A stretch of DNA of 38,533 bases, from the NCBI GenBank assembly GCA_051942165.1, contig JAVECS010000030.1:1-38533 (forward strand). The letters run 5' to 3'. A program made the translations under genes and the position numbers. Shown one piece after another: positions 315 to 28,166 of the stretch (position 1 is the stretch's first letter; each line of letters opens with the position of its first letter). Under the pieces are notes generated by a model. It had not been told where the DNA came from and did no database searches. It saw only the letters and a list, made by a program, of their open reading frames with translations. Origin of the DNA: Circinaria calcarea. Taxonomy: Eukaryota.

Positions 315-1121
315 TCAAAACAAGAGACCTCCCAAAAGGGCGCCACCCAGCAAACCCCCGGCCAGCGGAAGCCCATAGCCCCCTCCATAACCGTACCCAT
401 ATGGTCGCGAATACGGATACGCAGGCCGGATATACATTGCGTTCCCGCTCGTATGCGTATACGGCCCCTGCACATAAGGATTATACCTGTACGCTCCCGG
501 CGGCATGCCCCCGCCATACATGGGCGGCTCAATGTAGATTTCCTTGCCGTCCTCGCCGCGGCCCACGAGCTGCGGCTGCCCGGTTTCGATGGCGCGCGAC
601 ATGGCCTGTCGCAAGGCCTGGTGGCGGGCGTAGGCGCGTTGTTCCTCTTCGGCGCGCCGGCGCCGCTGGAGTTCGCGCTCCTCGTGCGTCATGCCGGTGA
701 TTTTGTCCTTCATCTTGCGGCCGAAGCGGTGCATGCCTCCGATGGGGGGCTGCTGAGGATGACTGTGATGGCCACCTTCGGTGTCGTCATCGCTGCTCTC
801 CGCTTCGACGTCGGCTTTGCTGGGGACTTTGTGTAAGGAGAGGATGCGCTCTCGCTCCTGGGGGTCGAGGCTGTCGAGGAATTGCTGGTCGTCGTACGGA
901 TGCTGCCAGATCGACCGGGGAGGATTGGCTGTGGTGTCTACGAAGAACTGGTGGGAATTTTTGGGATCATACTGTCGGATCCAGCCCGGGGGCAGTGGTC
1001 GAGCTTCATCTTCCATACTGCGACGGCTGATCGGGGGAATGCCATTGCGGGGCTTGAGATGGTTAGATTGCGTCGAGGAACCTGAGCTCGTGGCCGCTTC
1101 GTAGGTGGGCGGTGCACTCAT
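315..1121 (-). CDS. WW-domain protein with Gly/Tyr/Pro-rich tail (Wwm1-like), 268 aa, no intron in CDS
   Basis: ATG at 1121 (MSAPPTYEAA; the ORF track's 1145 start is TTG). WW signature PLPPGWIRQYDPKNSHQFFVDTTANPPRSIWQHP. C-terminus GYGYGGGYGLPLAGGLLGGALLGGLLF. Confidence 0.85.
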   Translation of the reverse strand: MSAPPTYEAATSSGSSTQSNHLKPRNGIPPISRRSMEDEARPLPPGWIRQYDPKNSHQFFVDTTANPPRSIWQHPYDDQQFLDSLDPQERERILSLHKVPSKADVEAESSDDDTEGGHHSHPQQPPIGGMHRFGRKMKDKITGMTHEERELQRRRRAEEEQRAYARHQALRQAMSRAIETGQPQLVGRGEDGKEIYIEPPMYGGGMPPGAYRYNPYVQGPYTHTSGNAMYIRPAYPYSRPYGYGYGGGYGLPLAGGLLGGALLGGLLF

Positions 1122-1190
1122 TGTTGCGGAAAATTTGATCTGCAATAACTACTGGCGTTACTCTCCGTGTCCAAAAGCTGCTTGAAGTAG

Positions 1191-1657: not shown

Positions 1658-4600
1658 TCAAAAGTTCGCAATCTTTTTAAACCAACTCTCCCCCCTCACC
1701 CCCGCAGCCGGCCTTGAACTGACATACTCGCTTCTCCTTCTCGAATTCCTATCCGGCTCTCTGCTCCCTTCACTACTCCTGATTTCTCTCTCCCGCCTTT
1801 CTCTCCTCCTATTCTTTTCATCCAGCTCATCGACAGCCGTGTCCGGATATTTGGATCTCCGCCTCGAAGACTTTCTCCTCGGCCGGCGGATATCCTCGTC
1901 ATCATCAGCTGCACCAGCGGGGCCGTCCTCACCCAGGATGGGTGGTGGCTCAATGACCGTAGGCTCGATCGGCGGTGGCGGAGGGGGTTCGACAATTTGA
2001 CTGTTTACCCAGCTAGATGTGTGGTCGTTGGCGCCTGTGATAGGATGCAGATACTGTTCCGCATCCCCCCGCGCGCCGTTTCGAGGATCAAAGTAGTCCT
2101 CCACGACTGGTGCGGTTTTGCGGCGACTAGCACTTGGTTTGTTTTCGTTGGGTGTGACGCGGCGTGAGCGTCGTTCATCATGACGGATTCGTCTTTCAGC
2201 TTCTTCGGTGGCAGTACGTGACGGAAGAGGTCGGTCTAGGTGAGAACGCCGACGATCGGATTTATGGGGTCGGGATGACGAATCAGCCTTTGGATAGGCG
2301 TCGTCCGGTTTCCGTTCCCTGTGTCTAGTACGTCGTTCGATGGGTTGATTGTCCGACTCGCGTGTTGCCTGAAACTCATCTACGAACCCCTTGTCTCCGG
2401 CGCCGTTTGGGCCGGGCTGATCGTCTTGACCTTTCGACCCGTTCCCGTCATCTCCTCTCGCTTCCCTTGCTCGTAACTCGCGTATCTTTGCCTTTCTTGC
2501 CTCTGTTGCTGCTCTATCGTTTAATAAATCTCGGGCTTTTCGCTCTTCTTGCTCTCGATTATTTACGGCCCGAGAAGTCCGGTCTCTCGAACTCCGCTTA
2601 GCACGTCGTTCTTCCTTTCGGATCTCAGCCTCCTCGGCTTCTGTCAAACCGCCTCCGTATGGAGCAACACCATTGGTGAAGCCTTCAATCTCGCCTTCCC
2701 GCCTACTTGAATGACGAACCTTGCGCTCATCCCGGCGAATCCGCTTTGCACCGTCTTCCCCCTCTGTTCCGGTCCTCTTTCGACGCGGTGGCTCATCCTC
2801 ATCTCCATAGACACCGTTGGTCTTGGGGCGATCATAAGTTTCCGAAGCCCCACGGGTTTTGCGGAATGAGCCGAACAAGCTGGAGATACCACCAGCCTTT
2901 TTCGGGGTGGTACCTGAACGCTTCAATGGCGGAGGTTCACGTGGCTGCTCAGCAAACGCCAAGTCTTCGGGACCTGTGATAAAATCTGGGCCATCGTTTG
3001 CCTCAACCATGACGATATCGTCTGCTTGTTCAGGTGAATATCTGGGCTGTTTAGGTTTCGAGGTACGATCAGCAATTGAATCCTTTGGCCGAGCCGCTCT
3101 TGTCGATTTCGACCTGCCGGGTAGCGACACACCACCCGGCGGAGGGTAAACGAAAGAAGCGCCTACCTCTCTTTTGGATTTACTCCGTGAGAGTTTGTCC
3201 CTACGTACATCTTTCGTCGAGGCCTTTTGGGGCAAAGGAGCCTTGATGATTGGATCCTCTAATCCGTTTACCATTACCATATCGTCATCATCAATGGGAT
3301 ATGGATCTGGAACACCTACAATACATGATTAGTAATGGTCTATTGGCATCGTTCAAATGGAAAAATGAATGTACCTGAAGCTTTCGGCTTCCCCCTTGTC
3401 GAAGGTTGGCGGCCTAGAAATCTAGCGGCCTTTTCGTTCATACCAGGCTGATCATCTGGTGAAGGAGAGGGCATTCCTGATGCTCCAACATCTACAGACT
3501 GCTGATGTGATAAATTCCTCGGGCCGGTAGCGCTAGGTCTACGTGTCGATTTTGGCCTTGCTGGAGAAGGTCCCCCAAACAACCCGGAGAAGCTTGCACC
3601 TCGGGACCTGGGTGGCCTGGACTCTGCCTTTTTATTCTTGTCAGAGCCAGATGATCTAGAGAGGTCTTCTTTCTCTTTCTCCCTGGGTGTTTTTGTAGAT
3701 TTAGATCTACTCAAACCTGGAGCTGGAGTCTTTTCTTTGGAAGACGGCGAAGTCGCGTCGGCGTCGTCTTTCGATCTACGGTCTTTTTTGGCTTCTTTCT
3801 TGGGTGCAGCGCCCCAGAAACCCCAGGAAGAAACGCCTTCGTCCCTGACGACACGTGCACGTTCCTTCTTGATCGGTTTCGAGACCACTGCAGGTTCCGG
3901 TGGAGGAGTGGGTAGGGCTGGTGGAGCTGGAGCTTCTACTAGGTAATCATCTATCTTTAGGTTAGGTCCCGCTTCAACTTTGGTGGCTTTGACAGGCTTT
4001 TTCTTGATCTTTTTATCAGTTGGATGCAATTCAATAAAATCAATAATGTCGTCGTCCGCGGCTTCGGAAGGGAAGCTGCCGGGAACCGAATCCTTTGATG
4101 CCTTGTGGTCGTCCTTTGGTGGAGGCGACGGTTCTTTCTTTTTGAGGGAATTCAAAGTCGCAGTCTTACCTGCAGATGAGGCCTTTGATTTCAATAATGC
4201 GCTCACCGGCTTGGGAGGGAACTCAGCTTGCGGCAGAGGCTCGGGCGCAGGCGGCGGAGGCGGGGGCGGGGGCGCGGTGAACTTGGATTCCGTCTTCTTC
4301 AACTTCTCCTTCTCCAGCGCTTTGATCTTCTCAGCCACCGAAAGGGTCTTGGATGTTGCGAAGCCGTTGGCTTTTATTGCGGACATTTTCGATGTTGCTG
4401 TTGCTGTTGCTGTTGCTTTGGAGGTTTTCGCAGGTTGCAGTGATTCGTCAGCGGCCGCTGCTTCTGGTTCCTTCGACCCAATTTCGTTAAGCGAGAAGGA
4501 GGCGGCGATCTGATTGGTCGCTTCGGGCGAATCTCGCTGGCCAATTTCCTTTTTGACCTCATCTCCTTTCTTGACACCTGTCTTTTTGGATCCGCCCCAG

Positions 4601-7600
4601 AAAGTCGACGCCCACGATCCTTCCTTTTTACTAATGTTACCGTCATTATTATCAATCTTACCCCAACCATCTTTGCCACCGGGGCCCGTGTCTGGCCACG
4701 CCGTCGGCTCATCCGGCCCGATATCGATAAGCCCATCGACCTTCATCTTATCGTCAGCCTTACCGGCCTTGGCGCTTTCCTTGCCGCCCGCTTTCAGCTT
4801 GCTGCCTCTCTCCTTTTTCGCTGGTGCCTCTTCGACAATCTCCACAATCTCGTCCATGTAGTCCATCGGATTCGCCGTTCCTACCATTTCCCTGGCTTTT
4901 TCTTCTTCCTCTTCCCTCTCGCGTTCCCTCTCCTTTTCCTTCTCCTTCTCCTTCTCTTTGCTATTTTTGTTTTTCGGTGCTGCCATTGACGACATCCCCC
5001 CCCAAAACGATCTGGCAGCCTTCGCGGGCGTCTCTTCTTTTGGCGATTCTTTCTTCGCATCCTCCTCCGTCGCTTCTTCATTGGGCCACTCATCCAGCGT
5101 GGAGAAGATATCCACTGTACTCTTTCCACCCTTCTCACTATCCTTGGCTTCATTCAGCTTTGAGATAGGCGTTGTTCGTGCAGGAGTATCCTTTTTAGAT
5201 TTGCCACCTTTACCCTTAGCAGGTGCATATGCTGCCCAATCGTCCTTGGCGACATCCTCTAGCACCGGCTCAGGTTCTGGCGTGAGGCCTACAGCGGGCG
5301 GGGTAGGAGCTGGGGGAGGCGCCTGAATTGCAAGATCCTTCTTACCAACCTTTTTCTTGTCTTTCTTGGCCCCACCCCACGATCCCCACATGCTCCCTCC
5401 TACCACATCTGCAACCGAGTCCGGCGTCAGATCGTCGACCTTTGGTTCTTCTGTTACCTCCATGACTCCTTTCCTGCCGTCATTCTTCTTCTCGGCTTCT
5501 TTCTCCTTCTCTTCTCTGTCTCTCTTTTCCGTTTCCTCCTTCTCTTCCTGTTCCTTCTTCTTCTCTTTTTCCTCCTTTTCCTTTTTCTCATGATCTTTTT
5601 CTCTCTTCTTCTTCTCCTTGTTGGATAGTCCTGCCCATCCACTTCGCCAATCTTCTTCGACGGGATCAGGCTTTTCTTTTACCTCCGGTTCGGGTACCAC
5701 AACTGCGATAGGCTCGGAAGATATAGTCTGACCCCTATTGCCCTTTTTTACCGTGCCCTTTTTTGAAGTACCCCATATACCGTCGTTTGGACTATCGAAA
5801 AGATTGACAGTGGCCGCGACTGAAACGGGTGCCGCTAAGGGAGGAGATGGCGGCAAGGGTTCTTCTGCCTTCCACCCAGTTGTCGTCCCTTTCTTCGCCT
5901 TGTCTGTCTTCTTATCTTTCTTCTTCGCGAAGCCGCCGCCCATCCAATCGTCGTTGCCGTTCGTCATCGCAGCTTCCGTAGCGATATGTGACACATCCAG
6001 TATGGGCTCATCTGTAGCCATAGATAATGCGCCTTTTGTGTTTTCCTTGTCTTTATTTCCCCAAGACTCCCAGGTGCCTCCTGCTGTAAACTCAATTTCT
6101 GGAACAAGGAATGCGGTGGAAGCTTCCCCCTTGATTACCCCATCTCCTTTCTTACTCTTTTTATTAGTGTTCTTTGGAGAATGTGCACTCCACCCATCTT
6201 CAACCATTGACTCAGGGTTTGGAACTTCAATGGCAGCTGGTTCTTCTAACAGAGCGCCTTCTTCCACTGGTTTCTTGGCCTTCTTCTTGTCCTTCTTTGC
6301 TGAAGCGGTACCCCATGCACTTGTTACAAGAGGTTCAAACTCCGGAACTGTGGCAATGGCAGCATCCTGGGATGGAGTTCCTTCCACCCCCTCCTTCTTA
6401 TCTTTCTTCTTATCTTCTCCCATAGGAAACGCACCCCAGTCTTCGTCATCCATCAAGTCAGGCTCCAAATGATCACTGATAACGGGTTTCTCTGGTATCA
6501 GGCTTTTCCCCTTTTTCTTTTCTTGCTTAGTACCGAAAGTACCCCAACTATTAGTAGTAGCGGGTACTGCCTCTGGCGCAACCGCAGCTGCAGGTTCCCC
6601 CAGTTTTGTAATCTCCTCTGTCTGACTCTGCTTTCCCTTCTTCTTGTTCGTGTTCTTGGCCGTAAACGCTCCCCAGCCCGTGTCCGCCTCTACTCCCGGC
6701 TCCTCAACCTTGGGCTCCTCAAACTTAGGCAGTTCCTCTGAACCACCCTTCCTACCCTTCTTCTTATTCTCCTTCGCTGTCGAAACCCCCCAAGAAGAAT
6801 CCGCTCCAACCTCAGGCTCTACGACAATAGAGACTACGGGCTCCTCGATCTTAGATGCTTCGTCTGCACCAACCTTCTTGGCCTTTCTCTTATCCTTCTT
6901 TCCAAAGGATCCTTCCCAATCCTCTTCTATCGCAGGGGGGGCCGGTGCAGCTGGAGGTGGGCGTGGGACTGGGGGTGCGTCATTTGCCTTATTCTTTTTG
7001 TCCATCTTCTGGCCCCATCCTGCAAATGAATCATCCGCGAAACTTGTATCAACTACAATCGGTACATCGACACTCGTCATATCGATGCCTTTTGAAGGCT
7101 CGCCGACAGCACCCTTTTTCTTGTTCTTCTTGTCTCGCTTGTTAACCGAACTAAAGCCTACATCCCATTGATTTTCTTCTTCTGGGCTTTTGACAGGCTC
7201 GTTAACTTTCGGAAGCTGAGTCTCTTCATGTTTCTCGTCCAAGGTACCGTAATCCCCAAATGCAAACGAGGATGTTGTAGTCTTTTGCTTGTTCTTCTTA
7301 TTACCGCCAAATGACCACGTGTTACTCCCAGAGGTGTCAGCAGTTGTTGGCTTCGTGTCCCTGGAAGTGGTGGTTTCCGTAGCTTCTGGGCTAGTCACGT
7401 TTGCTCCGTCGGTGCCCCATTTATTGGGTGTAGCCCAGTTGCTCGTCCATCCACCAAGCCCAGCGAAACCCAACGATGTGTCCCTGGTAGTAGATGTGTT
7501 AAAGGTAAGATCAAGTTTGGGCGCGGTATCGTCTAAACTTATATCATCAAAGGCAGTTGTAGTATGCGGATTAGTAGCTGGCGGTTCAGGTTCAAACTTC

Positions 7601-8941
7601 GTAGCCCGTTAGTAGGATGAGCAATTACGCCGAAACAATGGCATACCTTTCCCCTTTTTCCCTTTTTAGCCTTCTCTGTAGTGAAGGCACCCCAATCGTC
7701 ATCTCCGTTTGCCTCTCCGCCTCCGGCCCATGCTAATGAATCGCCGGCAGTTTCTACTGTAGCATGCGCCTCGTTCTTCCTCCTCTCCTCCTCTTCCTCT
7801 TCTTCCTTTTTCTTTTTCTCCTCCTTTTCATCTATTACCGTCTTTGCCTTTTTCCCCTTTTTAGCCTTTTTGGTAGTGAAAGCACCCCAATCGTCATCCC
7901 CGTTTGCCTCTCCGCTTCCACCGGCATTTTCTGCTGCAGCATCAGCCTCGGTCTTCCTCCTCTCCTCTTCTTCCTCTTCTTCCTCTTCCTCCTTTTTCTT
8001 TTTTTCCTCCTCTTCATCTATTGCCATTTTACCCTTTTTCCCTTTCTTCTTCTTCTTGCTATTACCGACGTCCCAGTCATCCCCTCCGTCATCACCTGCA
8101 CCACCGTCGCCATTGTTACTGCCCCCTCCCGCGCCTCCTCCGGCATTCCCTCCGGCATTCCCTCCGGCACCCCCGCCAATGTCCTCGCCATCTCCTTCCT
8201 CCTTATTGCCTTCATCACCTGAATTATCCCCTGCCCACTTTGCCTTGTCCGCAGCCTTCTGCGCTTTCTTATTCTTCTTTCCACCATGAGACTGAAAGTT
8301 GCTCGAATTGTCAAAGTCAACCTTAGGTAGCGTCATAGGTTTGAAAATCTCAAGATACTCTGGCGGTCGATCGGGCTGGTGAACCGTATAATTTGGGTGT
8401 CGAATGTGTTGAAGAAGTGGTGTGGCTTGGGCTAAGCTTTCAGAAGTGGAGTAGTCTGGAGGCGCATCAAGAACGGCGTCGTTGTAAGAAGGCGGGGGAG
8501 TTCCATATGGTGACGGAGCTTGCTTTGTGGCTTCGAGTAACTCCAAGCTGGATACCGGTTTTGGTAGAACCTTGGAGTTGAGGGGCAGACACTGCAAAGG
8601 TTAGATCCTCCTCATGCAGGCTAAAAAGGAACGATTGGAGATTGGGATCGCCGAAATCGTCCTGACCAAATGCGCTCGTCGAGCAAGTCGTAGCTGACAA
8701 TGAAAATTGGGAGTCCTACCCAGCTCGAGGTAAGCGTTGGAGCTTCGCAGCAGGCATCCCGCTCCATGCACAGACTACCACACCGCCTCGCCAAAGTTGT
8801 AAACATATAGCTCGCGTTGTTCTCCCCACCATCACTAATCCCTTCATCCCAACCAGTCTTCTGTTGATGGATCTTTTGATCGTGAATCGGGCTGGCTCGG
8901 CGACCTTCGCGCGGTGAACTGACAAGCGCTACTGCCATCAT
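1658..8941 (-). CDS. Very large, mostly disordered hypothetical protein (~2348 aa) with WG/GW-Lys repeats, PPxY motifs, Pro-rich tracts and an Arg/Glu-rich C-terminus
   Basis: Exons 8941-8720, 8591-7647, 7596-3375, 3315-1658. Introns 8719-8592 (GTAGG..CTAAC..CAG), 7646-7597 (GTATG..CTAAC..AAG) and 3374-3316 (GTACA..CTAAT..TAG) join four ORFs in phase, 7047 nt total. Exon 1 is the least certain. Confidence 0.8.
4393..4417 (+). repeat. (GTTGCT)4 coding microsatellite encoding ATATATAT
   Basis: gttgctgttgctgttgctgttgct read directly from the sequence. Confidence 0.8.
7647..8060 (-). repeat. Intragenic tandem duplication, ~195-nt (65-aa) unit, two copies
   Basis: gtgaaggcaccccaatcgtcatctccgtttgcctctccgc (7681) versus gtgaaagcaccccaatcgtcatccccgtttgcctctccgc (7876). 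Both copies encode KKGKK..IDE..KKKKEEEE..RRK.EA...GEANGDDDWGAFTT.KAKKGK. Confidence 0.85.
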
Positions 8942-10213: not shown

Positions 10214-13200
10214 CTACTCCTCCTTCACCACGACTCCATTCGCCCCTCCGTTCGTTTTCACAGCGCCCGCAGCGGGTGAACCTTCGTTACCAGGCGGGGT
10301 ATCCTCAGTTGCTGCGAGTCGGTTGTACATGCCTCTGATTTGAGGGCCTGCCGTGCCGGGATTTGGCCAATAAGTTGATACATAGTCCCTAGGAGCAGCT
10401 TCAGTCAGGCAGCCCAGTGTCTGTAACGAATTTTAGCGGCTTACCAAAGATCATTCTCCATGATAATCCTGTCAGGTCCTATAACGTCTAGGTCGAGAGT
10501 CTTCTTTATGTGTTGCCCGATCTTCACCAACTCGACCCTAAGAAGGTTCGCCCGGTCTTGTTTGACGGGAATCTTTTCCTTTGTGGCCCCCTTAACCAAA
10601 TCTAAACTATTTCTGACATCTCTGAAAGCTAGACGCATGAGGTGATTCCTGGTTCCACCACCGCCAATAGCATCATCATTGCTCCGTCGGTGGCTGTGCT
10701 GTGTTCGTCGGTGATTGGAGTCCTCCGGCTTTGTATGCTCGCTACCTGCTCTTGGGCGTGTATCAGATTGTGAGACGCCCCCATTTCGCTCTCCGTTCGA
10801 GTAGCGACGTTCGGCGCTATTGCGGTTTCGGCGCTTTTCCGCGTCTCTGTAGCCCTTCCGTGCTGAAGAGGGAGCAGGCGAAGCAGAGACGGTAGCACGA
10901 CCATCCATGTTTCGGGCGAATCCATTCTTCTTGTTGTTACGGTGATGGTTTTCAACAGCTCGCTTTGCAGCGAGGTTTGTACCATTGCTAGTTTTTTCTT
11001 TCAAGACGGATAATAGATAATCGGCCCGGCGCACAAGATGAACCGCACCAGGTGACTTTACACCCTTCTCCTCACCTTTACTTCGCTCTTCTTTCTTTTC
11101 AACTCGATGTTCTTCCAAGAAAAACTTGTCACCGAGGCCTAGGTCCGGGTCATCCCGAATTTGGACCCAAGCACCGTATCCGTGTCGTACAATACCGACA
11201 CAGAGCATGCCATCCTCACGTGCACCCCATTCCGTCGAGTATGTGGCTCCCTTGGATGCTTCAGGGATTCGAAAGCTCTTTGGATCAGTAGCTTGCTCTG
11301 TGACTTCCTTCAACATCCGCATCTCACCTGGTCGCTCCATGAAGGTCTCGGCGTTGATCCGCTTTACGCCCCTGTAATCGAAGAGTACAGCTTTTCGATC
11401 TTTTTTTGTAATGGTTTTATTCTGGGCACGTTCCAATGCATCAACCCGATCCTGCTCCTCTTTCAGTAGCTTGGTAGCCAGGTTGGAGATCTCTCCCAAC
11501 GTCCTCTTCAAAAGCCCTCGGTCTCGTGTCACAAGACGAGCTTCTTGAACGAGTTCATCACCACGATCGTCAATAGAACCAAATCGCAGGTAGCCCCGAA
11601 TGAGATTACGGACCTCCTTCTCGCTCATAGGTCTCTTGGGATCCTGGCCTGGCCGTTGGTCCGAGTCATCTGCGGCAGCGTTGAGTGCGGCAAGGTCTCT
11701 TGCTTGCTTCTTTGCCGCTCGCTCTTCACGGTCTTCATCTGCTTGCTTCCTCTTTCTCGGTGCGTTCTGTTCGATGATATCCTCAAGATATTTAGCGTCC
11801 GCCTTCCGCCTCTCCTCGTCTTTTATCTCGGCAAGTTGTTCCTTGGGGATAATCTGATCCCATTCAAGATCTACTTTAACGTCTGTATATTCAAAGCTCT
11901 TGAGGAACTCTTCTCCACCATCTGCGGCAATGCCCTCCGGTTGATCCGTTTTATGTTCTTCAGCATTAGCAAGGACTGAATCAATATCAAGCTCTTCGAG
12001 CGTCTTCTGATTCCCCGATTGTTCAAACATTTTCTGGCCACGTTGCTTCAGGATACGAGAGATATCATCAGAAGACGAGGGTTCAGTGACATTCTTTCCA
12101 GCACGGGCCATTTTGTCAGTCAGCTCTTTGGCGTCTTTGTCAGTTATGCCGCGGCGGATTGTGATGAATTCCAACATCAACTTATTCCTAGCCCGTTCGA
12201 GCACCTCCTCTTCGACAGTTTCCTTTGAGACCAGTCTGTAAATACTGACAGGCTTGGTTTGTCCAATTCGATGTGCCCGAGCCATTGCTTGGAGATCAGC
12301 TTGTGGATTCCAATCCGAGTCGAAGAGAACCACCGTATCTGCGGTCATGAGGTTGATGCCAAGACCACCAGCTCTTGTGGACAGCAAGAAGCAAAAGTCG
12401 TTACTATCTGGTGCGTTGAAATGATCGATTGCCATCCTGCGAGGTCCAGCAGCTATCGTACCGTCAAGGCGTTGGAACTGGTAGCCTCGAAGACGTAAAT
12501 AGTCGCTCAAGATATCAAGCATCTTCACCATCTGACTGAAAATCAACACGCGATGGTTATCTTTTTTAAGCTTGGTGAGTAATTGATCGAGCAACATCAT
12601 CTTGCCACTGCTCGAGATGAGGCCTTTGAGGACGTCTTCACGCTGATCACGGCCTGCCAAAATACGGTCCTCGGCGTTAGGGAACATGAAAGGATGGTTG
12701 CTTGCTTTCTTTAACTCCATCATAATATTCAACAAAGATTGCTTTTGCCCCTTGGCTCCTTGATTCAGGGCCGCATAATTACGAGTTAGAATGTTTCTAT
12801 AATATTCCAACTGAACGTCAGCTAGTACCACCCGAATTGTCTTCTCTGTTTTCGGTGGTAGGTCATTCTCCACTCTGTTTTTCGTTCGGCGAAGCATGTA
12901 TGGCTGTATCGCGTTGGTCAACTCCGCAATCTTGTTTCCGGCCTCTTCAGACTGCAAGTCCATGTTTTCTTCGATGGTGATTTTACCGGGGTTAAGGAAG
13001 TCCATGAGCGCCGATAGTTCCCCTAGATGGTTTTGAATCGGAGTCCCCGTAATCAGGAGGCGACTGGGGGCCTTGAAGTCAAGAAGCTTTACATATAGCT
13101 GAGAATCACGATTCTTCAGCCGGTGGGCCTCGTCAATAGCCATGAATTGCCACTTAATTTGCGAAAGGAAGGATGCATCGGCAAGGATATACTCGTACGT

Positions 13201-15700
13201 AGTTAGGAGAACGTTAAACTTAGCCTTTTGCGTGTTACCGTTCACCAAAAGTTCGTACTGTTTGATTATGTTTCGAGACGCTTCATTACCATTGTAGACG
13301 ACGTAATTGATATCCGGTGTCCAGTTATCAAAGGTTTCAGCCCACGAAGGCATAGTCGACAATGGAACGACAACAATAAAAGGCCCATGTTGCTGTCGAT
13401 CATGCCTAAGCCAGTTCATAAAAGCCACGGTTTGAACGGTCTTTCCAAGCCCCATTTCGTCTGCGAGTATTACATTCTGATTCTTACACCAGTTGTATGC
13501 TAAAAAGTTTAGTCCGACAATTTGAAATTCGCGAAGTGTGCCATGCTTGATGTAGGATGGCTGTTCTGTCATGGTAATGTGTCGACGCCGCGTGTCTTTG
13601 TTTGACTCATGCTTATCGGATAGGGGAAGTTTCGAGGTACGGTCAAGATACCTATCGATCTCCGTTTGGGCAATGCTACTAACCAGGGCAGCAGCCTCCC
13701 ATGTGCATGAGTCGTAATAAAGACCTCTCCCTAAACACTATCAGCACATGCTACTCCAGTAATACATATTGTGGTCATACACTTGACAAAGTACTCCGTA
13801 TTTCCATCATCACCTTCACGAGAACCAATGACTCTCTCGACCTTCATGTAATCAGTCAAGGCATCCGCATCACGCTCACGGTCCAGACTCCATTTCTCCT
13901 TTTCCTCAGGTGGCATGTCATCGTCCTGTGACATGTGGATATCCTCTTGCACTATTTTACGAAAATAGTTTTCGAGTCTTCGGACACCACGGCAGGATGC
14001 TAGATCAGAGTTTTTCTCCCATGTTGCATGGTAATGGGCTTTTCCTTGCCATTTCACCTGTTCGAAATGACTCAGTTACAAGCATGGGATGAAGGATAGA
14101 AGCCTGCCATTAAGCTGTGAATCACATACATAGTACTCAAAGTCGTCTCTGCCTGGATCCGTGATATCTTGGCCTGTTGCTGATTAGCGTCTAACCACAG
14201 AAGGGTACAGCTGCGCTTACCAGCACTTGCGCGAGGTCGGTGGTTCAGGATAGCATCAATCGCAGGAACATCCTCCACCTGTTCAGCAGCCCAGTAGTTT
14301 GGCGTCAGCATGTCGGCGTCCTCTTCCTCAAACATGTCTTCATCATCTTCATTATAATTGGAGACTTTGGCAGCTTTGCGAGTCGAGAAGCGGACCTCAG
14401 CATGCGAAGGGCCAGAATCGCTGCCTGCGGGTAGCAGCTTGCGCCGATGATTTTTTGCCGTGGCTCGTCGCCGCGACACTCCATATACGTCAGAGTCCGA
14501 TTCAGAATTAGACGGTGAGCGGGCGGAGAGGCTGGCTTGTTTGGATGCTGCTATAACATTCCGACATTAGCACTGAACAAGTGAAACTTTGCGAGACCCA
14601 AGCCCTAAGTCAGGGGTAGGAGGAAAGGTACCTTGAGCAGAAGTTTGCTTTCTCCTCTTCCGTGGGTGGGCCGGGATATCTGAATCTGACCCATCGTCTT
14701 CTGATCCGCTTTCAATCTAACAACCTATGTTTAGCAAACTTGCGCCGATGGTAAAGGCTAGTACACATACGATACGGTTAGAGGGACGAGCACGAGCCTG
14801 CAACTGTCAGCCATGAAAACTATTCCTATCCATAATGTCTTACGCTTCGGCGAATTCCATAGAGTGCTGGATTGTTGAGAATATACTCATCTTCTTCGAC
14901 TCCAGATTTCCGCTTTCCCGGTCGTCGGGAATCTGGAGATGAAGAACGATCGTCGTGAGTGGTTATTATGTTTGCGGGAGGTGTAGACTCCATCTCATAG
15001 TCTGCGTCATCAGATCCAGCTGCATCTTCATCTTGAGATGATACCGAGCCTTCTCTGCTATAGTAGCCGTTCTCAGAGTTCTGTTGATTTTGGGTTCGGG
15101 GGGGTAAGGAGGTAGGATTCGAATGGTCGATGACTTCCGAAAGGTCGCTTTCACTGCTTGACACTGCAGCACCGTGGGACAGACCATTAACAGTTGGCGA
15201 AAGGTGTCCATTGTTGTATGAATGCGATGAGGATGCTTCGCGCGAAGGGGGGAATACTAGTGTACTTGCTGTACGAGAAGGCAGTTAGCATTGAATCACG
15301 TACGCCGGTCGCAGGCACAGCCCGTATGAATAAGCAAGCAGATCAAGCGTCCGCGACCCAGAAACAACTTCACAGCGGCTGCTGGCTCCAGAGAATGCTG
15401 GACAATGATAGATTGAAGATGGAAGGGTAGGTGTTGACGATATTTTGATGGACGGTACATGGCACAATAACCCACTCCTGCCAGCTTGTACTTCACTTGG
15501 AGAAGGTAGAGTGTCTAGCAGTACCAGATCAAGCCATCCAATGTCTCCGGGAGTAAGCTGGAGGAGTATTGGACGCATATATAAATATAGGTAGCCCTAA
15601 CGATGAGGCTCCAATCGGCTGGAGAGATGCGGTGATTGAGACATGTACAGCAACTGGAACACCGCTCAAGAGAGTGGATGTAGTGGTACTTACAAGCCAT
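10214..15700 (-). CDS. CHD1: Chromodomain-helicase-DNA-binding chromatin remodeler Chd1/Hrp3 (~1551 aa, 9 exons)
   Basis: Exons 15700-15694, 15268-14844, 14797-14771, 14716-14632, 14550-14221, 14173-14130, 14057-13781, 13730-10445, 10388-10214, all in phase. Tandem chromodomains (FEYYVKWQGKAHYHATWE; VERVI..EYFVKWRGLYYDSCTWE), SNF2 motifs LADEMGLGKT and DEAHRLKN, helicase-C STRAGGLGINL and QAMARAHRIGQ, SLIDE-type region, C-terminal LWDYVSTYWPN. Confidence 0.95.
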
Positions 15701-16139: not shown

Positions 16140-18346
16140 ATGTCTGACAAACTGACGCGGTAAGTCGGCGGGGGTATCTGGCGATCCTGCCTTTGGACTA
16201 ACCGGATGACCATGCAGTATTGCTATTGTCAATAACGACAAGGTATCATCCACATCCTTACAGATTTCTTATCATTTCCGGAGAAGACATTGAGGCTGAT
16301 CAGGATTTTGGCTCATCCAGTGCAAACCCAAGGTACAGTCAGTGCTCACCCTGGAATCAAGCCAAGCGGACTGACCGGGGGCTAGAAATGTCGTCAAGAA
16401 TGCAAGAAATCGTGTCCGGTTGTCAGGACCGGCAAACTTTGCATAGAGGTCACTCCAGAATCCAAAATTGCTTTCATATCGGAGAGGCTATGTATTGGTT
16501 GTGGAATATGTGTCAAGAAATGCCCTTTTGCTGCCATCAATATCATCAACCTGCCTACAAACCTCGAATCTCAGGTCACGCACAGGTATTCGGCAAACAG
16601 CTTCAAGCTTCATCGGCTGCCGATGCCCCGACCTGGACAGGTACTGGGACTTGTTGGAACAAATGGTATCGGGAAGAGTACGGCACTGAAGATATTGAGT
16701 GGCAAGCTCAAGCCAAATCTTGGGAGGTATGATAGTCCTCCAGACTGGGAAGAGATTCTCAAGTATTTCCGGGGATCGGAACTACAAAGTACGCGTCACT
16801 AAAATCACATGACGGCGATTTACTAACGTCTACCAGATTATTTTACCAAAGTCCTGGAGGATGATTTAAAAGCTGTTGTAAAGCCTCAATACGTGGATCA
16901 GATTCCCAAGGCCGTAAAAGGTACAGATCGGACAGTAGAAGGTCTGATAACTGCCCGCTCACAGATGGACAACTTGGAGAAGATATTGGATATATTAGGT
17001 TCGCCGCCCAATTTCTAAACGTGAAACTTCTCGTTATATTAACCCGTCTTCAGAACTCGAACAGGTCTTGGATCGGGATATCGACAAACTCTCTGGTGGG
17101 GAATTGCAACGATTCGCCATTGGTATTGTCTGCGTTCAACAGGCCGACGTGTAGGTTTTCCGAACTATTTTCATGGATATGATTTTGACGCTTGCGATAG
17201 CTACATGTTCGATGAGCCGTCATCATACCTAGATGTCAAGCAGCGTCTGAATGCTGCCAGAACCATTCGTGACCTTCTTAGACCAGATGACTATGTTATA
17301 GTTGTCGAGCACGATTTGTCAGTTTTGGATTATCTTTCCGACTTTATCTGTGTCCTATACGGGAAGCCGGCCGTGTACGGTGTCGTCACTCTCCCAGCGT
17401 CTGTTCGGGAAGGTATCAACATCTTCCTCGATGGCAATATTCCAACGGAGAACCTCCGCTTTCGTGAAGAATCACTAACATTCAGAATCGCCGAGGCCGG
17501 GGATGAGTTCATGTTCGAGAAAGCTCGTGCCTTTAGCTACCCGGCCATGGAAAAGACGCTGGGAGGCTTCCATTTAAAAATAGAGCCTGGGCAGTTCACG
17601 GACTCGGAGATTATCGTCATGATGGGAGAAAACGGAACGGGCAAGACCACATTCTGTCGGTTGCTTGCTGGGGCCGAAAAACCCGATGGTACCAAATCCG
17701 TGCCGTCCATGAACATTTCCATGAAGCCTCAGAAAATTACGCCTAAGTTTCAGGGTACTGTCCGCCAGCTATTCTTCAAGAAAATAAAGGCTTCCTTCCT
17801 AAACCCGCAATTCCAGACAGATGTGTACAAGCCGCTGAAGCTTGAAGACTTCATTGATCAGGAAGTCCAGAATCTTTCGGGTGGTGAATTACAACGTGTA
17901 GCTATTGTCCTTGCCCTGGGCATTCCCGCAGACATCTACCTCATCGACGAGCCTAGTGCTTATCTCGATTCCGAACAGCGTATTATTGCTGCGCGTGTTA
18001 TCAAGCGCTTCATTATGCACGCAAAGAAGACCGCGTTCATTGTCGAGCATGATTTTATCATGGCGACATATCTCGCCGACCGTGTCATAGTCTTTGACGG
18101 AAAGCCATCGGTGGATGCAAGGGCAAATACTCCAGAAGGATTACTGACAGGCTGCAACAAGTTCCTCAAAAATCTTGACGTCACCTTCAGGAGAGATCCT
18201 AACAGCTTCAGACCTCGAATCAACAAAGCCAACAGTCAGCTAGACCAAGAGCAGAAACTTAATGGAAACTACGTAAGTATACCCCTATTTCTTCACTGGC
18301 AAGCCATTGACACATTTCACAGTTCTTCTTGGAAGATGACAGTTAA
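16140..18346 (+). CDS. RLI1: ABCE1/Rli1 Fe-S ABC ATPase, ribosome recycling factor (604 aa, 8 exons)
   Basis: Exons 16140-16159, 16218-16242, 16321-16332, 16386-16788, 16837-16998, 17054-17150, 17201-18272, 18323-18346. N-terminus [45 protein letters not shown]. Walker A motifs GTNGIGKST and GENGTGKT, two LSGGELQR signatures, C-terminus GNYFFLEDDS*. Confidence 0.97.
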
Positions 18347-19093
18347 AAAGGGAGTCCCTAAAAACGACTTTCCGCAACATGACGATGCATTAGACACTGG
18401 AGTTATAGCATCGCCCGGCGTTGGTAAAAGCGCCGGAAAACGCAGAGCTGGTCTCCTGGATGATGAAGCATGCGCCGATGAAGACGACGACGAAGACGAT
18501 ATAACATAATGGCGGCGGTCTACCTCCTGTCCCCTTATCATTGCCAACGCGCCTGGAAAAGGGACGAAGGGCGAGCTGGCAGTGTTTATAGGTTGATGGG
18601 TTAAGCTAGGTGACTACCATCAGGGGTTTACTACCAGGCCTACTGAGCAATGGGAGGAAACAAGTTGGTCTGGCAATTACAGGTTCTGCTTGTCAAACTC
18701 TGTGCAAAGGAGGTTACAATTGGCGTCGGGTTGACTCTAAACAGAGCACGTGCAACCTTTCTACAAGGCGGTAGCAGATTATCTACGTGGGAGCTGCCGC
18801 TTATCGTGCATAGGACAGAGAGCACACAAAAATGTCCCAGACCGATATGACGTACCTAGTTTGTTTTCTCTCTACCATCACCACAAAAAATTCGGTTTCA
18901 TGGCCCACTCAATCGCTGACTTAACCCGTTTTTTTCCCTCCCCAATTGCCGAAATCGAACTGCAACCGCAAGTAGTAATGCCAGCAAAGGGCCGAGAGGC
19001 TCGAACTTACTAACCTTGAGTATCGATGGCATCAAACACCCGCTGAAAGAAGATCTCCCCAAAGACACTGACCCGGACCCGAGCTAGACCTGT

Positions 19094-21551
19094 TCATTCT
19101 TCCTCGACCATTTCGCCCTCCTCGCTTCCCGAATGCACCGCCGGCTCATCCTTGACCGGCACCACGGGCGCCTGAGGCGTCCTACTCCTCCTCTCCCTCT
19201 CCCGTCGGACCCTCTTGTCCCTCCGCCCTTCACTCTCCCCGTCGCTTTCCCCTCCCCTTCTTCGCCTCCCTCCGATGCCGCTTCCGTAATCGAGTTCGTC
19301 CCGCCCGCCTCTCGGATCCCCTCGAGTCCGGTAGAGTCTCTCCCTTTCATCTTCCCTGTCTTTTCGTTCACGATCGTAACGCGCGGTAGATCGGCCATCG
19401 GCATGTTTACTTGAGATACGCTCGTGGCGGTCGTGGTCTCGGTCACGGGGTGGGGGCGATAAGCCGGTGGCGCTGGACTTGCGGTACTGACGCTCGCGAT
19501 CGGCCATTGCTTTGCGGCGGTCGGCTTCGTAGGCGTCAGGCTCAGGGGTACGGCTTGCCCGAGCAAGTGGAGGAGCGTGTTTACGACCCGAGTGGCTGTT
19601 TCGGAGGTCTCGATCCCGATCTCGATGGCTGTCTCTCTCGCGGTCGCGGTGATCACGTTTCGAGCCCCGGTCTTTCTCGCGCTCCTTTTCCGCATCTTCT
19701 TCTTTTTCCTTAAGACGACGGATGACCTTGTCGAAAGCTTGTTTGCGCAGATCTTCAGACTCGAGGGCTTGGAACTCTTCGAGGTGAGCGACCTGTGCTC
19801 GGACAGCTTCCCATGTCGATGTGGGTAGCACGGTAGGGTTATCGAGGTGTTTGATCCTAGAGCGGAGTGCATCTACGAGCCGGCGCTGCTGCCGCTCGGA
19901 GGCGTGCTTATCGTCTTCTGTGCGGCGGAGGACTTTCTCGAGCAGGCGATGGAATATTAGAGTGAGTGTATCCGGAGGGATACTGTCGGTGCGACGGTCC
20001 GTAGACATGAGGGAGAGAAACTCGGGAAGAGTAGTTTTGGGTGTTATCTCGTAGCGTTTGTCCTCTAATACATCATAGACTTCGTTGCGGATAAGACGGA
20101 GGGCCCGCTCTTCTTCTTCGACCATGTCCCAAAAGAGATCAAGAGGCGTTGAACCTGTTTGGCCAAGCAACGCTTTGTAGCGAGGGTCGTCCTCAACTAA
20201 GGGCAGAATTTGCATCCATTTTGTACCGGCTTTGATATTTCCAGCGGCTTTAAGTTCTTGAAGCAATGAAAGAAACTGATCACGATTCTGCCGTTCTCTC
20301 CTAGCTTTAGAGTTCTTCTCACGCTGGCGCTCGTCATTGAACGTTCGCTCCAGTGACTTTATGTGATTCTCGAAAGCAGTTAAAATGTCGGATTTGCTTA
20401 AAGATTGGAACTTCTCATCCCCCTGAAATCTTTCATTTGATTGGATGATCTCATGTGCAGTAGCCCACCTAGTATAGGGCTCTAAATCGAGGCCTTTCAG
20501 AATTCCAACCAGCTCATCCATAGCAGACTTCTTGGTAGTGATTTCGCGCTCTACATTGGCCTTTTTGAGATCGATGATATATTCCTCAAATAATTGGCGG
20601 CGCTCTGTGTCATCGCTTGTTGATCGGAAAATCGTCTCACCCTGGATAATAGGCCTCGCGGTCTTCCATCTAGTGTAATGTTTGATCTCTGGGTGACTTC
20701 TTAGCATAGTACCAAAGTCGGCGCGCAGCTTAGCAAGCCTTTCTTTAGCACGGTCCTTCTCTTGCAGGCGAACTTCCACGGCATATTTTTCGAACGCTGC
20801 CTTGCGATCTTTTGGATCCTTCAGAGCTCGATATTGGGGGTCCTTGATCGTGGCTCGCATGGTTTGCTCCCATGTCCAGTCTGGCTGCACATTTGATCGG
20901 CGGAGTAGCTTGATGAACGCGGCTTCGCCTTCCTCAAAAGTCGAATAGTCTGGATCCGTAGATTGAGGCTGGAAGGTTGGGGCCCGTGATCCATTTGTGT
21001 CATTCTGCCCATACCCTATCTGCCTCTCTGGTCCCACACGTTCTCCATAATCATCTCGATCACGCTGTTGAGGGTATGATGAGAACGAAGCTGTACCTCC
21101 AGCAACGAACTGCTGATGTCTGCCAGCCATTAATCCCGGTCAACCTAGAGTTGGGGTATACCTACGGAGCAGCCGGTTGTGTAGCAGGCTGGCTCTGTGC
21201 TAGAGCATCCTTGTAGACCTGTGGCATCTCCCACGAGCTCGTCTTGTTCTCCGTGTTGTACCTAGACTACCGTAAGCTACTCTGCTTGATCTAACAATAT
21301 CAAGGGTGGCCCAGTACCAGTATTTCTTTCCATTTGAGCTGTATTCCTTCCATGGTTGATTCGCGAGAGCTCGCTATGCTCGGTCAGCTCATATGTTGAA
21401 ACAGAAGATACGGTTCACCTACCTCGGCTGGTGTCATAAGCTCCGCTGGCTTGGTCCATTGCGTTGCTTTGGTTTGCGTATTGTAGTAGTACACGCGTCC
21501 TTCCGGCGTACTGGCCTGACTCCATGAAGCAGCTCCGTTTATTCCATTCAT
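19094..21551 (-). CDS. PRP40: U1 snRNP-associated Prp40 (two WW plus FF domains, RS/RD-like tail), 768 aa
   Basis: Exons 21551-21423, 21373-21318, 21261-21166, 21119-19094. WW1 WSQASTPEGRVYYYNTQTKATQWTKP, WW2 WKEYSSNGKKYWYNTENKTSSWEMP. FF repeats such as AFIKLLRRSNVQPDWTWEQTMRATIKDPQYRAL..RKAAFEKY. C-terminal SEEGE motif. Confidence 0.95.
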
Positions 21552-21948
21552 GGTCGCTAAAGCCAGGCATACACCTATCACAAAGCGCAGAGTGAAGGAT
21601 ATCTTGAATAGCGATACTCCTGGGGTATGTGGATTGCCGAAAGAAGCCCCAAGTTCGATTTTCTTCGCTTGTGCTTCACTCACATTTCAACCAATCACAC
21701 CCCAAGCTCAAACCTTAAATTCAACCAGAACCGGCCAACAGTAGTTCACTCTACTGATCTATTTAACTCCAATCTCTGCTCACCCAAACCACTGTCGCTA
21801 CATCGCATTAAGCAACCAGCTTTCTTCGTTGTTTGAGTCATCACATTGCAATACTGACGCTGTCTGATCTCTCAATGGCTTCGCTGGAGCCTATCCACAT
21901 CACCTCGAGTGCCTAACAGATTGCAAGGCATCAAACAAGTCCGGCAGG

Positions 21949-23871
21949 ATGGAGAGATTCGTAGAGGATTCGGTCATGGATATACTCATTCCGGAAGCTT
22001 CCCAGTTGGATATCGAGGATGCACTCAGCTCTACGGATACAGCAGACGAATCGGCATTGATCCCTACAATACCACAGAGGAATGTACTTTTCTTTGGTAT
22101 GACGCTGATAAACGGCACTTTGGGTACAATCTCTTACTCATTCTTAGGAAATGCGCAGATGAACTAGTCCCTATATATGTTGTTCTACGGACGCCTTACC
22201 AAGATGAGCAGAGTCTTAAAGCCTATATTGCCAGACTCGCTGTTGCCTTAGAAGCCCACGCTGTCAGCTCTCCCTCTACGGAAGGACATCCAAGCGGTGT
22301 TCGAAATGGAACTTTTGGAGGACAAACCAGAGATGTCATATGGTCTGAGAAAGTGGATACTGCGGAAGAACCAGTAATAGTGGTGGAAGAAGCTACAGAA
22401 CATGATGATACAAGAGACATGTTTGTGATCTGGAAACTCATCGCACATCTGAGTGCGTTACTTCAAGTTCGCGCAATGGGATTAATAGCGCTCATGCCGT
22501 GCAGGTCGTCCTAGGCTGCGTTTGCAGATTCCGGCCATTCTCTTCAAACTTTCCGCTTCTCTACGGCCCACAGAGGATGAAGTTCTGGCTGACCTCAGTG
22601 ATCCGTTTCTACCGAGTGGAGTGCCACTCCCCGCCAATCTACTACAACCTCTGCAAGATGACCCAGAACTGAAAGGCATGGAGCCACGACTGTCGGCGCT
22701 CAGACTATCTCGAGCTTTACCATCCATGCGCGCCCGACGTCCCGAAACAAAACCACTAAAAGTAGCGTCAAGGAGAGCTGTGCGCGCAACTTCGGCAGTG
22801 AATGCACGAGTCCGCTATCATAGGTCCAAGATATCAGCTCGGGATTCTGTTGTAACGGCTTCTCTAGATATAGAAATACCGCCAATTGTCAGCTCCATCA
22901 CGGAGATCAAGTCTATAGATTTGGATTTTAAAGAAGGCGAAATAGAGATGATGGCTAAAGATTATGTGTTGAAGCTTCCCATGAGATGCCAACCCCGAGA
23001 CAATACTGTCTTCTTCTATTATTTAACTCTCGGTCCAGCGTTTACCGACAGAATATCCACAGCGTCCAATTCCAAAGCGCTAGAGATATCAATCGATGCC
23101 ACTGTCCTCGTCTCCGAGACCTGTCACCCACGGATCGAGATGCGCTGGAGAACGCATGTTGATTTCTCGACCGCGTTGAATCCAGACTTCAGGCGTCCTG
23201 GGCAGTCCATGCAGCGAAGCAGCCGCCCAGCAAACCTTCCAAGTGTAGGAGCACCCGCATCGACTATGCAGAACACAATTAATACCACGAAGGTCTCCTC
23301 AGAGTCATATCGAAACATGCAGGATCTTGCTCCCCTTAAAGAAACTGGCATTACGGTAACTTTCACTGCCCTAGGAGAGGTCTATGTCGGCGAACCGTTT
23401 CGTTGGGACGTTTTCATTGTAAACCACTCGGGTAAATCAAAACAATTCTCTGTCATGGCTATTCCAAGACGCACCAGAAGATATTCACAGACTATGTCAT
23501 CCGCAAATTCGAGAGTAGAAATCGACTACCATCAGACTGCAGAGGCGGTCCTTGATGAGAACACCCTCTATACGATGAAGAAGAAAGGCAGTCCGGGAAC
23601 TGCACAACTGGTGTGTCTGACGACGGAGATCAAAATTGGGTATGCTTCAAACTCCACCCTGAATATCTCTTCAAGCATTGCTTACGCATCAACAATACAT
23701 AGACCTCTTCATCCTGGTGCATGCCACACCGCAGAACTCAAGTTTCTCCCACTGGCAAAAGGGTTATTGCAATTGGAAGCGGTAAGGTTTGTTGATATCG
23801 AATCGGGAGACACGGTTGATGTGAGGAATTTACCAGATGTCATTGCCGTGGAAAAGGCTTTGGAGGACTGA
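21949..23871 (+). CDS. TRS65: TRAPPII complex subunit Trs65 (~581 aa); start codon tentative
   Basis: Exons 21949-22096, 22159-22452, 22505-23639, 23703-23871. Motifs QRNVLFFDE, LSRPRLRLQ, CHPRIEMRWRTHVDFS, VYVGEPFRWDVFIVN and IKIGPLHPGACHTAELKFLPL..LQLEAVRFVD are typical of fungal Trs65. Confidence 0.85.
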
Positions 23872-24901
23872 GGTATTCAGGCTGGGCTTTTGTACTTGGA
23901 AGTCATATTAGCAGAAGAACGGTTCATTATGGCAAGGCACTCGAAGATAGCCAGGCCATTATTGGCTTAAGGGGGGTCTGCCGTATGGCTGCTCATTATC
24001 CAAACAGTTTTACGTTGAGTATATTAAGAGCAGGAATTTTCCTTCGCGAATGCTTCTTCTCAGTCATCCATGTCATCAACGCATGGAAAGCTGAGCCAGA
24101 AGTCATGGCTGTAGAAATGGACCTGGTCCTGTTCTGAATTCGCCTAAGGTTGGATTGATCCAATAGATAATTTGGAGTCGGATCCGGTAAAATCAGGAGA
24201 CATGGGTTTATCTCAAGGACGCAGCCCTGACGGTAAACGAAAGAAGTGAGGTCAGGTAGATATGTGACGGGATGAAATACCTCGAATGAAGTTGCAGCAG
24301 AGAAGAGCGTTTATAGAGACAGGTCGATGGTTGGACTAGCCGCTTGGAAGGAGTCAGATGGAATCATTGGCCGGGATCTTCAGGAGATGACTCCCATTAG
24401 ACTTTGCTAGGTGCTCTGGGCAACCTCTGTGGAGCTCGAATGGTTGAATGAGCCCGTTGAGTCCGTCTCATCTAACCATCTGGGCCCTCAGTTCGTCGTT
24501 GAGACGAGGAGGTTCGGAACGGCCCGGATATGCCCAATCCCTCTAAAGTATCGAATGATCAAACTGTCTGTATTTGCATACTTGTCGTCCCAGCTACTTA
24601 AAACAATGATGGTGGCTACCTGATAGCCAACGTTCGACGTACCCAAGTGAGTACTGCACCGCTGTATCGAAATGATGCCGGTCCTGGTCGGCCCGCTTGC
24701 CAACACGTGTGACGCAGCACGGAGTTAGTGGGGCACACTCCAAACACTGCCAGCCGCCGTCTAAATGATACAGCCATCAACTCGACTCTCCTAAGACAGT
24801 CCTGGAGAATATTCACGACCAGCTTCACTCTTGCCGCTTACCGTTTGCTCTCCTCCTCGATTATACCGTCCTCACCAACTGTACCACAGATACCCCCCCC
24901 C

Positions 24902-26136: not shown

Positions 26137-26755
26137 GAGGCACGAGTTTGTAGCTACGTCCCTAAGCTACTTCCGTCAGGCTTTCAAGTCGTGGGATTTA
26201 GGCATTTTACAGAGCATTGCTTGCTTCGTTTAAAAAACCTTGGGCTTGCACTCAAATATGTTGGCTGCCGACTGTTTTTGGCCCTCATGTGCTACTCTGG
26301 GAAATGGTGTGGTTGAGCGAGGCGTCTGGTTGTTTCGGAAAGCTCGACATACCCCTAGAGTCATACTGCTTACATAGAATGAGAATCTTGAGTACGGCCA
26401 ACACACCTTTCTCGTGGGCCCGTTCCGTGACTGACTATGCCATCACATCTTGACTATGGATGGTACTAACTGAATAAAGTTATTAGCTTCGCCGCAATCC
26501 AACTGTTATCGTAAAACGGCCATATCAACCAGTCGGGGGAAATTCCTCCGGATTTGCAGATTTTATACGTCACTAGTACCCCCGCCAAAACAAAAAGACC
26601 CCACCAGAGCTCAAAATCTTCAGGAGAAAGAGAACCTCAATAAAAGCTTCCTAGGATAGCTGTACAATTCCTTGTCAATCAACTGAGCCTTATAGGCCGG
26701 AAGCTTATACGAAAAAGATCTAAAGTGTTACTTACTGTATTCGAGAGCCTTCACG

Positions 26756-28119: not shown

Positions 28120-28166
28120 GCGCAATCGGTATGACTTCTGGGGCGGTACGCCTGATTCATTGTAAG
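28112..28166 (+). other. PGK1: Predicted alternative intron spanning the PGK stop codon; splicing adds exon 28167-28186 encoding R-N-V-P-K-L-stop
   Basis: Consensus donor A|GTAAGT at 28112, branch-like CTGAT at 28152-28156, acceptor TAAG| at 28166; 55 nt long. Confidence 0.7.

Follow-up and report, generated by a model that had tools for sequence, protein, structure and literature searches.

The turnover of transporters and the sorting of membranes in fungi are governed by the ubiquitin ligase Rsp5/HulA, a member of the Nedd4 family, whose known adaptors are either arrestins or membrane proteins. Adaptors with several PY motifs (PPxY) have been described as activating Nedd4 ligases only if they are tethered to a membrane or polymerised (PMC5892558), and the alpha-arrestins known as ARTs as combining PPxY motifs with basic regions through which acidic degrons are recognised (PMC8050425). 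Here, we describe a gene for a giant, disordered scaffold protein from Circinaria calcarea, located in a stretch of 38,533 nucleotides (contig JAVECS010000030.1 of assembly GCA_051942165.1; hereafter, the window). Tentatively, we read its product as a soluble, multivalent peripheral-membrane protein that serves Rsp5/HulA as an adaptor or activator and has neither transmembrane nor arrestin domains, the binding to WW domains being predicted from its motifs. This shifts the interpretation from RNA silencing and the clathrin adaptor AP-2, to which a sequence-only reading of the window had pointed, towards Rsp5-linked membrane sorting; the interpretation given by that reading is partly supported by the evidence below.

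The gene lies on the minus strand from 8941 to 1658 and has four exons (8941-8720, 8591-7647, 7596-3375 and 3315-1658), which together form an open frame of 2348 amino acids with a single terminal stop. All three introns have a GT donor and a CTAAC-type branch site. The sequence-only reading had found the gene at the right site, with bounds (3375-8300) that are too short at both ends. Of 13 distinct related loci shown, 12 have a counterpart of exon 1 (61-68 codons) followed by a phase-0 intron of 116-139 nucleotides, and this conservation of exon 1 makes the PY module described below translatable. An alternative donor for intron 1 (giving 107 nucleotides) was dropped, as the related loci close exon 1 at the matching Trp/Ser codon and have an intron of 116-139 nucleotides. 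Exon 1 also contains an Arg-Cys-x-Ser-x-Cys word (window 8747-8788, minus strand), which is kept in lichen fungi and is not evident in other classes; the Cys pair is a possible lipidation site. The annotation of Monascus (P0251, P0273) gives two isoforms for a single locus, only one of which has the PY module, and lichen forms retain a Met directly after the module; thus, short isoforms of the scaffold protein without the PY module may exist. The genome has a single copy of the gene: besides the full match, only a weak one containing two stops was found.

The feature which most directly suggests a link to Rsp5/HulA is a conserved tandem PY module close to the N-terminus (Table 1), which the sequence-only reading had overlooked. 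Among 152 full-length homologs (1600 amino acids or more, extra cluster members excluded), 48 have a pair of PY motifs with tyrosines 11 residues apart, in every case within the first 330 residues, and beyond residue 330 all 152 together have only 10 PY motifs, each of them single. Many full-length homologs without the pair appear, by eye, to be gene calls that start after the PY exons. When homologs were flagged by the conserved N-terminal island instead, 34 of 51 had the pair, with 88 PY motifs in the first 330 residues and none beyond; nine of the 17 without it were truncated calls caught by the loose island pattern. The inner Asp at position 10 was present in 34 of 34 pairs, even though the search pattern did not require it, and 200 shuffles gave no pair. 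The P, D, P, P and Y of the module are invariant in a 23-row alignment spanning classes, while its codons vary synonymously in seven loci. A short helix is predicted between the two PPxY motifs (AlphaFold model of exon 2). An Rsp5 with three WW domains (named by eye from its WW array and sequence) is present in this genome, as is, in a separate gene, Bsd2 (PF10176), whose PY pair has the same register and, in the one comparison made, is identical in 9 of 15 residues, four of which lie outside the PY-defining positions.

The bulk of the protein is occupied by repeats built around Trp and Lys. Of its 40 Trp residues, 23 are adjacent to Gly (shuffle mean 6.7, maximum 17) and 21 have at least five Lys within positions +4 to +19 (1.4 shuffled, maximum 8); WG occurs 18 times (3.5 shuffled) and WxxF/W eight times (1.5 shuffled), and none of 2000 shuffles of the protein matched the observed count for any of these four features. 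The repeat units number 23 in total and are spaced 33-57 residues apart from residue 483 to 1039; repeats in the DNA show recent internal duplication (e.g., 7647-7724 and 7842-7919 at 88%). Thus, about 20 Trp-Gly motifs, many followed by a Lys cluster, are present as the sequence-only reading had claimed, as are all eight motifs which it quoted; of its repeat pattern, the acidic-Trp word followed by a Lys cluster holds, while Gly is frequent rather than obligatory and the "EEP..V.PE" spacer is loose. The selective conservation of Trp which it proposed to look for was found: across 26 lichen homologs, Trp (identity 0.62) and Lys (0.57) are the best-kept residues, the mean for the region being 0.30. 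Of the 830 Trp in 26 homologs at a greater distance, 50% come before a Lys cluster (16.5-fold over shuffles), 38% are in WG (5.2-fold), 43% adjoin Gly, 20% are in WxxF/W (5.7-fold) and 8% in WxxL/I/V (0.7-fold). In the 152 full-length homologs, 917 of 1111 Lys clusters have a Trp among the 12 residues ahead of them, Lys makes up 95% of the clusters compared with 70% overall, and the mean charge is -1.1 before Trp and +2.2 after it.

The conserved unit can therefore be written as acidic-Trp-spacer-poly-Lys, in which Gly is common but not required, because the Lys cluster is tied to Trp more closely than Gly is, and because new repeats drop Gly. New units of this kind were seen in homologs P0166, P0206 and P0231, where they were re-amplified independently, retaining Trp and the Lys cluster and losing Gly. 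The unit is probably a functional motif with a partner of its own, since it persists in four classes of fungi and, in some lineages, has expanded again with new sequence. A search of the genome for the Trp+Lys pattern at the DNA level gave 164 matches (110 in the control) and was swamped by poly-A; no second repeat protein was found in ten contigs chosen from this pattern, nor at the weak second match to the gene.

Around these motifs the protein, which is near neutral in charge, seems to be without globular domains, as the sequence-only reading had proposed. No Pfam family scored above cut-off in any of the four open reading frames of the gene, and exon 3 gave only low-complexity matches in the PDB. 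Exons 2 and 4, for which structures were predicted, are disordered, with isolated helices only: the predicted local distance difference test (pLDDT) and template modelling (pTM) scores were 54 and 0.22 for exon 2, and 49 and 0.21 for exon 4. At the C-terminus there is a conserved basic amphipathic helix, whose hydrophobic moment is the second-highest of the whole protein. An aromatic-basic end is present in 195 of 212 proteins (redundant cluster members included), and in 176 of these 212 the helix is preceded by a basic-basic-x-Ser kinase-type site; the window protein has the terminal helix, but only a single basic residue ahead of the Ser. A pattern of acidic and then hydrophobic residues occurs in all 152 homologs (19-fold over shuffles), and the two islands of this type (residues 1799-1812 and 1895-1900) resemble SUMO-interacting motifs.

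From these elements, the following mechanism can be proposed. As in Bsd2/Ndfip adaptors, the N-terminal PY pair would probably dock onto two of the WW domains of Rsp5. The approximately 20 Trp+poly-Lys units and the C-terminal helix could anchor the chain to anionic membrane, or to membrane proteins or coats through their acidic patches, and so provide the tethering on which activation of the ligase by multi-PY adaptors depends; for this step we consider the chances evenly balanced. More speculatively, phosphorylation beside the terminal helix might release it, and the Lys clusters might also accept ubiquitin. The likely setting would be ubiquitin-dependent sorting in hyphae at the plasma membrane, Golgi or endosome.

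Compared with Bsd2 and Ndfip1-2, the scaffold protein has the same N-terminal tandem PY register and inner Asp (as in Bsd2 of this genome) and, by analogy, would follow the same logic of several PY motifs plus a membrane location. However, it lacks the NEDD4_Bsd2 domain PF10176 (four reading frames of the window gene and 15 homologs), has no evident transmembrane helix, is several times longer, and carries a Trp+Lys array that is absent from Bsd2. With the alpha-arrestins (ART/Rod1/CreD/ArtA) it shares solubility, PPxY motifs, basic regions and kinase sites, but it has neither the arrestin N and C domains nor their fold, and its PY motifs are N-terminal whereas those of arrestins are C-terminal. 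It is possible, albeit doubtful, that it represents a third structural class of Nedd4 adaptor: a 250-kDa disordered chain, with neither transmembrane helices nor an arrestin fold, which would switch Rsp5 on via a Bsd2-type PY pair laid on membranes by some 20 previously undescribed acidic-Trp-poly-Lys motifs with a receptor of their own (anionic lipid, acidic cargo tails or another pocket), re-amplified independently in fungal lineages.

Several observations weigh against a role as a membrane-held Rsp5 adaptor. PY motifs are also the mark of plain substrates and of ligands of other WW proteins, and the pair comprises 15 of 2348 residues, so that it does not on its own explain the repeats. Eight homologs with a real N-terminus have one PY motif, a 10-residue spacing or none; among 23 genomic loci the strict pair is present in 12, three are too short, and in the 20 that are long enough it is degenerate in seven and undetected in one. 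The likeness to Bsd2 comes from a single comparison, for which Bsd2 was spliced by eye. On the membrane side, the basic-hydrophobic score is only modestly raised, with 17 peaks against 9.5 in shuffles (maximum 16), and its Trp-bearing peaks number 11 against 5.0, which is below the shuffle maximum of 12. Furthermore, the acidic residues just before Trp would make lipid binding weaker and hint at a protein pocket as the partner.

In a second reading, the acidic-W-G-x-F repeats would bind the ears of AP-1 gamma or GGA, the scaffold then being a coat accessory at the Golgi or endosome like aftiphilin and gamma-synergin. This is unlikely, though compatible with binding to Rsp5. The protein has acidic-aromatic-G-x-aromatic words like those of aftiphilin, gamma-synergin, NECAP and stonin 2, and the polarity, with acid before the aromatic residue, agrees with the GAE consensus. 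An ELM-like GAE pattern occurs three times in the window protein and 45 times in 36 of the 152 homologs (6.4-fold over shuffles), FGxF is 17-fold over shuffles, a clathrin-box-like L[LI][DEN][LF][DE] is present in 55 of the 152 (58 against 2.8 shuffled), and the genome has gamma-adaptin-like and GGA-like ear genes (labelled by eye). Strict GAE words are nevertheless rare, at 0.3 per protein, and so do not make a multivalent array; the window protein has no clathrin box, and G and F are missing from many orthologous units. Lys clusters lie outside the known GAE motif and are not known from the four coat accessory proteins. Binding to the AP-2 alpha ear, also proposed by the sequence-only reading, was rejected. 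The motifs described for this ear are DP[FW], FXDXF and WXX[FW]X[DE] (PMC5694535). WXX[FW] itself is abundant (1114 against 168 shuffled in the 152 homologs), but an acid follows at +5 in only 17 of the 1114 (1.5%, against a background of 18.8%), the form WXX[FW]X[DE]n is absent from the window protein and below shuffles in the homologs (17 against 29), and DP[FW] and FxDxF are both at a ratio of 1.1 to shuffles.

The Lys clusters themselves suggest another reading, in which the Trp+poly-Lys units are K-box-like or bind RNA or ribosomes, and the protein is a scaffold for translation or for ribonucleoprotein that is merely regulated by Rsp5. A hydrophobic residue with a run of Lys resembles the K-boxes of eIF2-beta and the N-termini of eIF5B and ABCF1, and the strong preference for Lys in the clusters and the Arg-rich C-terminal third are in keeping with this. 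We also consider it unlikely: Lys rather than Arg is atypical of RNA binding, no RNA-binding or translation domain was found by Pfam (four reading frames of the window gene and 15 homologs), and both the PY pair and the conserved amphipathic helix at the C-terminus speak for a membrane role.

The sequence-only reading had given RNA silencing as one of its two options, with the protein as an Argonaute-hook platform, which here would serve quelling or meiotic silencing. As in GW182/TNRC6, Tas3, SGS3 and SDE3, a long disordered region contains conserved Trp residues that frequently adjoin Gly, and conserved Trp in disorder with acid nearby corresponds to two criteria given for ligands of the Argonaute (AGO) pockets (bioRxiv 10.1101/2025.10.18.683247). 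The enrichment of WG in the distant homologs is in the same direction. However, WG accounts for little more than a third of their Trp, half precede a Lys cluster, and Gly, which is less closely tied to Trp than Lys is, is dispensable in some lineages (in one Onygenales protein, 4 of 26 Trp adjoin Gly). The positive charge after Trp is opposite to the negative patch of AGO1-pocket ligands, described as meeting a positive surface (10.1101/2025.10.18.683247). Of the four Argonaute loci in the genome (G000:C190, C936, C2138, C2373), C190 keeps the equivalents of K660 and L694, that is, pocket 1; the other three have Leu, Leu and Thr at the K660 equivalent (one read by eye), so that the Trp pockets differ sharply. 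The scaffold has no RRM, UBA or helicase domain that we could find, and no named Neurospora ortholog is among the matches listed. A hook of this kind is improbable.

There is a similarly slim chance that the PY pair docks a different WW protein (an SO-type fusion scaffold, Prp40 or a Wwm1-like protein) and that the scaffold acts at septa, fusion sites or the nucleus, with the Lys clusters as localisation signals. The genome has 18 WW-like matches, some of them tandem and outside Rsp5, the window contains PRP40, and a WW gene adjoins the scaffold gene; yet this neighbour is linked to the scaffold gene in none of the 23 related loci, and the PY register matches that of Bsd2, a known Rsp5 adaptor. 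Finally, an elastic organelle tether like Leashin (the tether of the Woronin body) would share a giant, repetitive protein, found here only in filamentous ascomycetes, with conserved ends and a variable middle, and is very improbable, since by description (PMC2690989) Leashins are of 5,900-7,500 amino acids or more and highly acidic, with repeats of Pro, Glu, Leu and Ser, and so differ in size, charge and repeat consensus from a near-neutral protein of 2348 residues with Trp+Lys units, a contrast with published descriptions, as no Leashin sequence was compared directly.

Table 1. Features of the scaffold gene and its product in the window (all on the minus strand; aa, amino acids; nt, nucleotides)
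Feature	Position	Residues	Remarks
Exon 1	8720..8941		74 codons including start ATG; required for translating the PY module
Intron 1	8592..8719		128 nt, phase 0, GT...CTAAC...CAG
Exon 2	7647..8591		PY module, N-terminal island, Gly-rich linker, first three Trp+Lys units
Tandem PY module	8451..8495	aa 107-121	PPxY-x5-D-x-PPxY, tyrosines 11 apart
Third PPxY	8355..8366	aa 150-153	in some homologs
N-terminal island	8235..8327	aa 163-193	conserved; ends in basic helix and Trp
Repeat array	4534..8096	aa 240-1410	22 units of acidic-x-W-(G)-x-(F/W)-x(1-6)-Lys cluster
Intron 2	7597..7646		50 nt; GT donor, CTAAC branch site and AAG acceptor; assigned from the reading frame
Exon 3	3375..7596		bulk of Trp+Lys repeats, proline-rich linkers, conserved islands
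Gly/Ser/Thr/Trp-rich island	7414..7470	aa 432-450	without Lys cluster; W439, W443 and W449 identity 0.88, 0.92 and 0.73
VPGSFP island	4069..4086		acidic-hydrophobic patch follows; PG-x-FP word almost invariant
PTPPPEP and basic-SSWGFWG islands	3796..3912		contains last Trp+Lys unit; both Trp identical in 26/26 homologs
Intron 3	3316..3374		59 nt
Exon 4	1658..3315		Arg-rich, disordered C-terminal third with conserved islands
Two acidic-then-hydrophobic islands	3005..3310	aa 1799-1812, 1895-1900	
Short amphipathic stretch	2858..2887	aa 1940-1949	
Long charged single helix	2459..2656	~aa 2017-2082	pLDDT 78-94
DYFDPRN and TSSWV islands	1997..2104		best diagnostic motifs of the family
C-terminal basic amphipathic helix	1661..1696		usually preceded by basic-basic-x-Ser kinase-type site

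Of the remaining islands, the Gly/Ser/Thr/Trp-rich one at residues 432-450 is presumably the stretch of the protein most like GW182 or like an amphipathic lipid packing sensor (ALPS) motif. A pattern search with VPGSFP was uninformative (31 matches, 25 in the control). Other short motifs were not enriched over shuffles: calcineurin PxIxIT (1.2-fold) and LxVP (1.0), SH3 class I (0.4) and class II (0.6), YxxPhi (0.9), NPF (1.3) and the clathrin W-box (1.4). The Atg8-interacting acidic [WFY]xx[LIV] was at a ratio of 1.0, and WxxL/I/V at 0.3-0.7-fold. No Rfam match was found in the window.

The family to which the protein belongs is real, conserved and apparently undescribed. A search with the C-terminal exon scored 7999 candidates and gave 159 proteins, the named ones among the best 120 being hypothetical proteins of lichen fungi; a profile search gave 228 clusters at 50% identity, of which the 150 best were listed. 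The homologs that could be named (look-ups of 30 of those listed and of later matches) come from Aspergillus, Monascus, Onygenales, Chaetothyriales, several Dothideomycetes and Geoglossum, and all are uncharacterised, so that the family spans Lecanoromycetes, Eurotiomycetes, Dothideomycetes and Geoglossomycetes. The view of the sequence-only reading that this is an uncharacterised, disordered, multivalent scaffold agrees with these results. Matches in the ESM Atlas, all below 0.9 and nearly all to a "hypothetical protein", serve as leads only. In a quick tree of 41 selected rows, the sequences cluster by class, as expected of a single-copy ortholog, and the window protein falls with Xylographa and Lambiella. 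The orthologs include some from Aspergillus; none named from Neurospora was found. No Sordariomycete, Leotiomycete or yeast names occur among the matches listed, which is a weak negative, as the number of candidates was capped and some matches are unnamed; the test in Neurospora which that reading proposed may therefore not be possible. A locus tag guessed from gene order, NCU03059, proved to be nst-3 and was discarded. No paper on the scaffold protein was found, although the locus tags of model species were not established, so that a mention in print is possible.

Three orthologs that were scanned have 6-18 DUF3659 repeats added in or before the Trp+Lys array, and the clade that bears DUF3659 (P0187, P0213, P0221, P0316-P0319) is nested among Dothideomycetes. 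A DUF3659 protein of A. oryzae has been described as associated with lipid droplets, and its paralog as not (10.1101/2022.11.24.517872). One homolog, P0322, is annotated as a fusion with Iml2; this is probably a merge made by gene prediction, because some loci have IML2 as the neighbouring gene.

Directly upstream of the scaffold gene, on the same strand, lies CHD1 (window 10441-15284), as it does in 16 of 23 related loci; this linkage is a handle for locating orthologs. On the other side, the WW neighbour (315-1148, minus strand) has a weak WW match (E 0.012, under the cut-off) and a PPxY of its own, and we take it to be Wwm1-like. From 16202 to 35915, Pfam identified an ABC ATPase (RLI1-like), PRP40, TRS65, PGK, IML2 and NUP160; the same stretch also has small reading frames that we presume to be Mpv17-like and Sem1-like. 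A Cys-rich frame of 376 codons at 36633-37763 (plus strand), without a Pfam match, is possibly secreted.

If the scaffold is only a substrate of Rsp5, it is still a conserved protein that had not been described, and of moderate interest. If the adaptor reading is true, a conserved, giant, domain-free adaptor, seen here only in filamentous ascomycetes, would give hyphae a new way of targeting the ligase.

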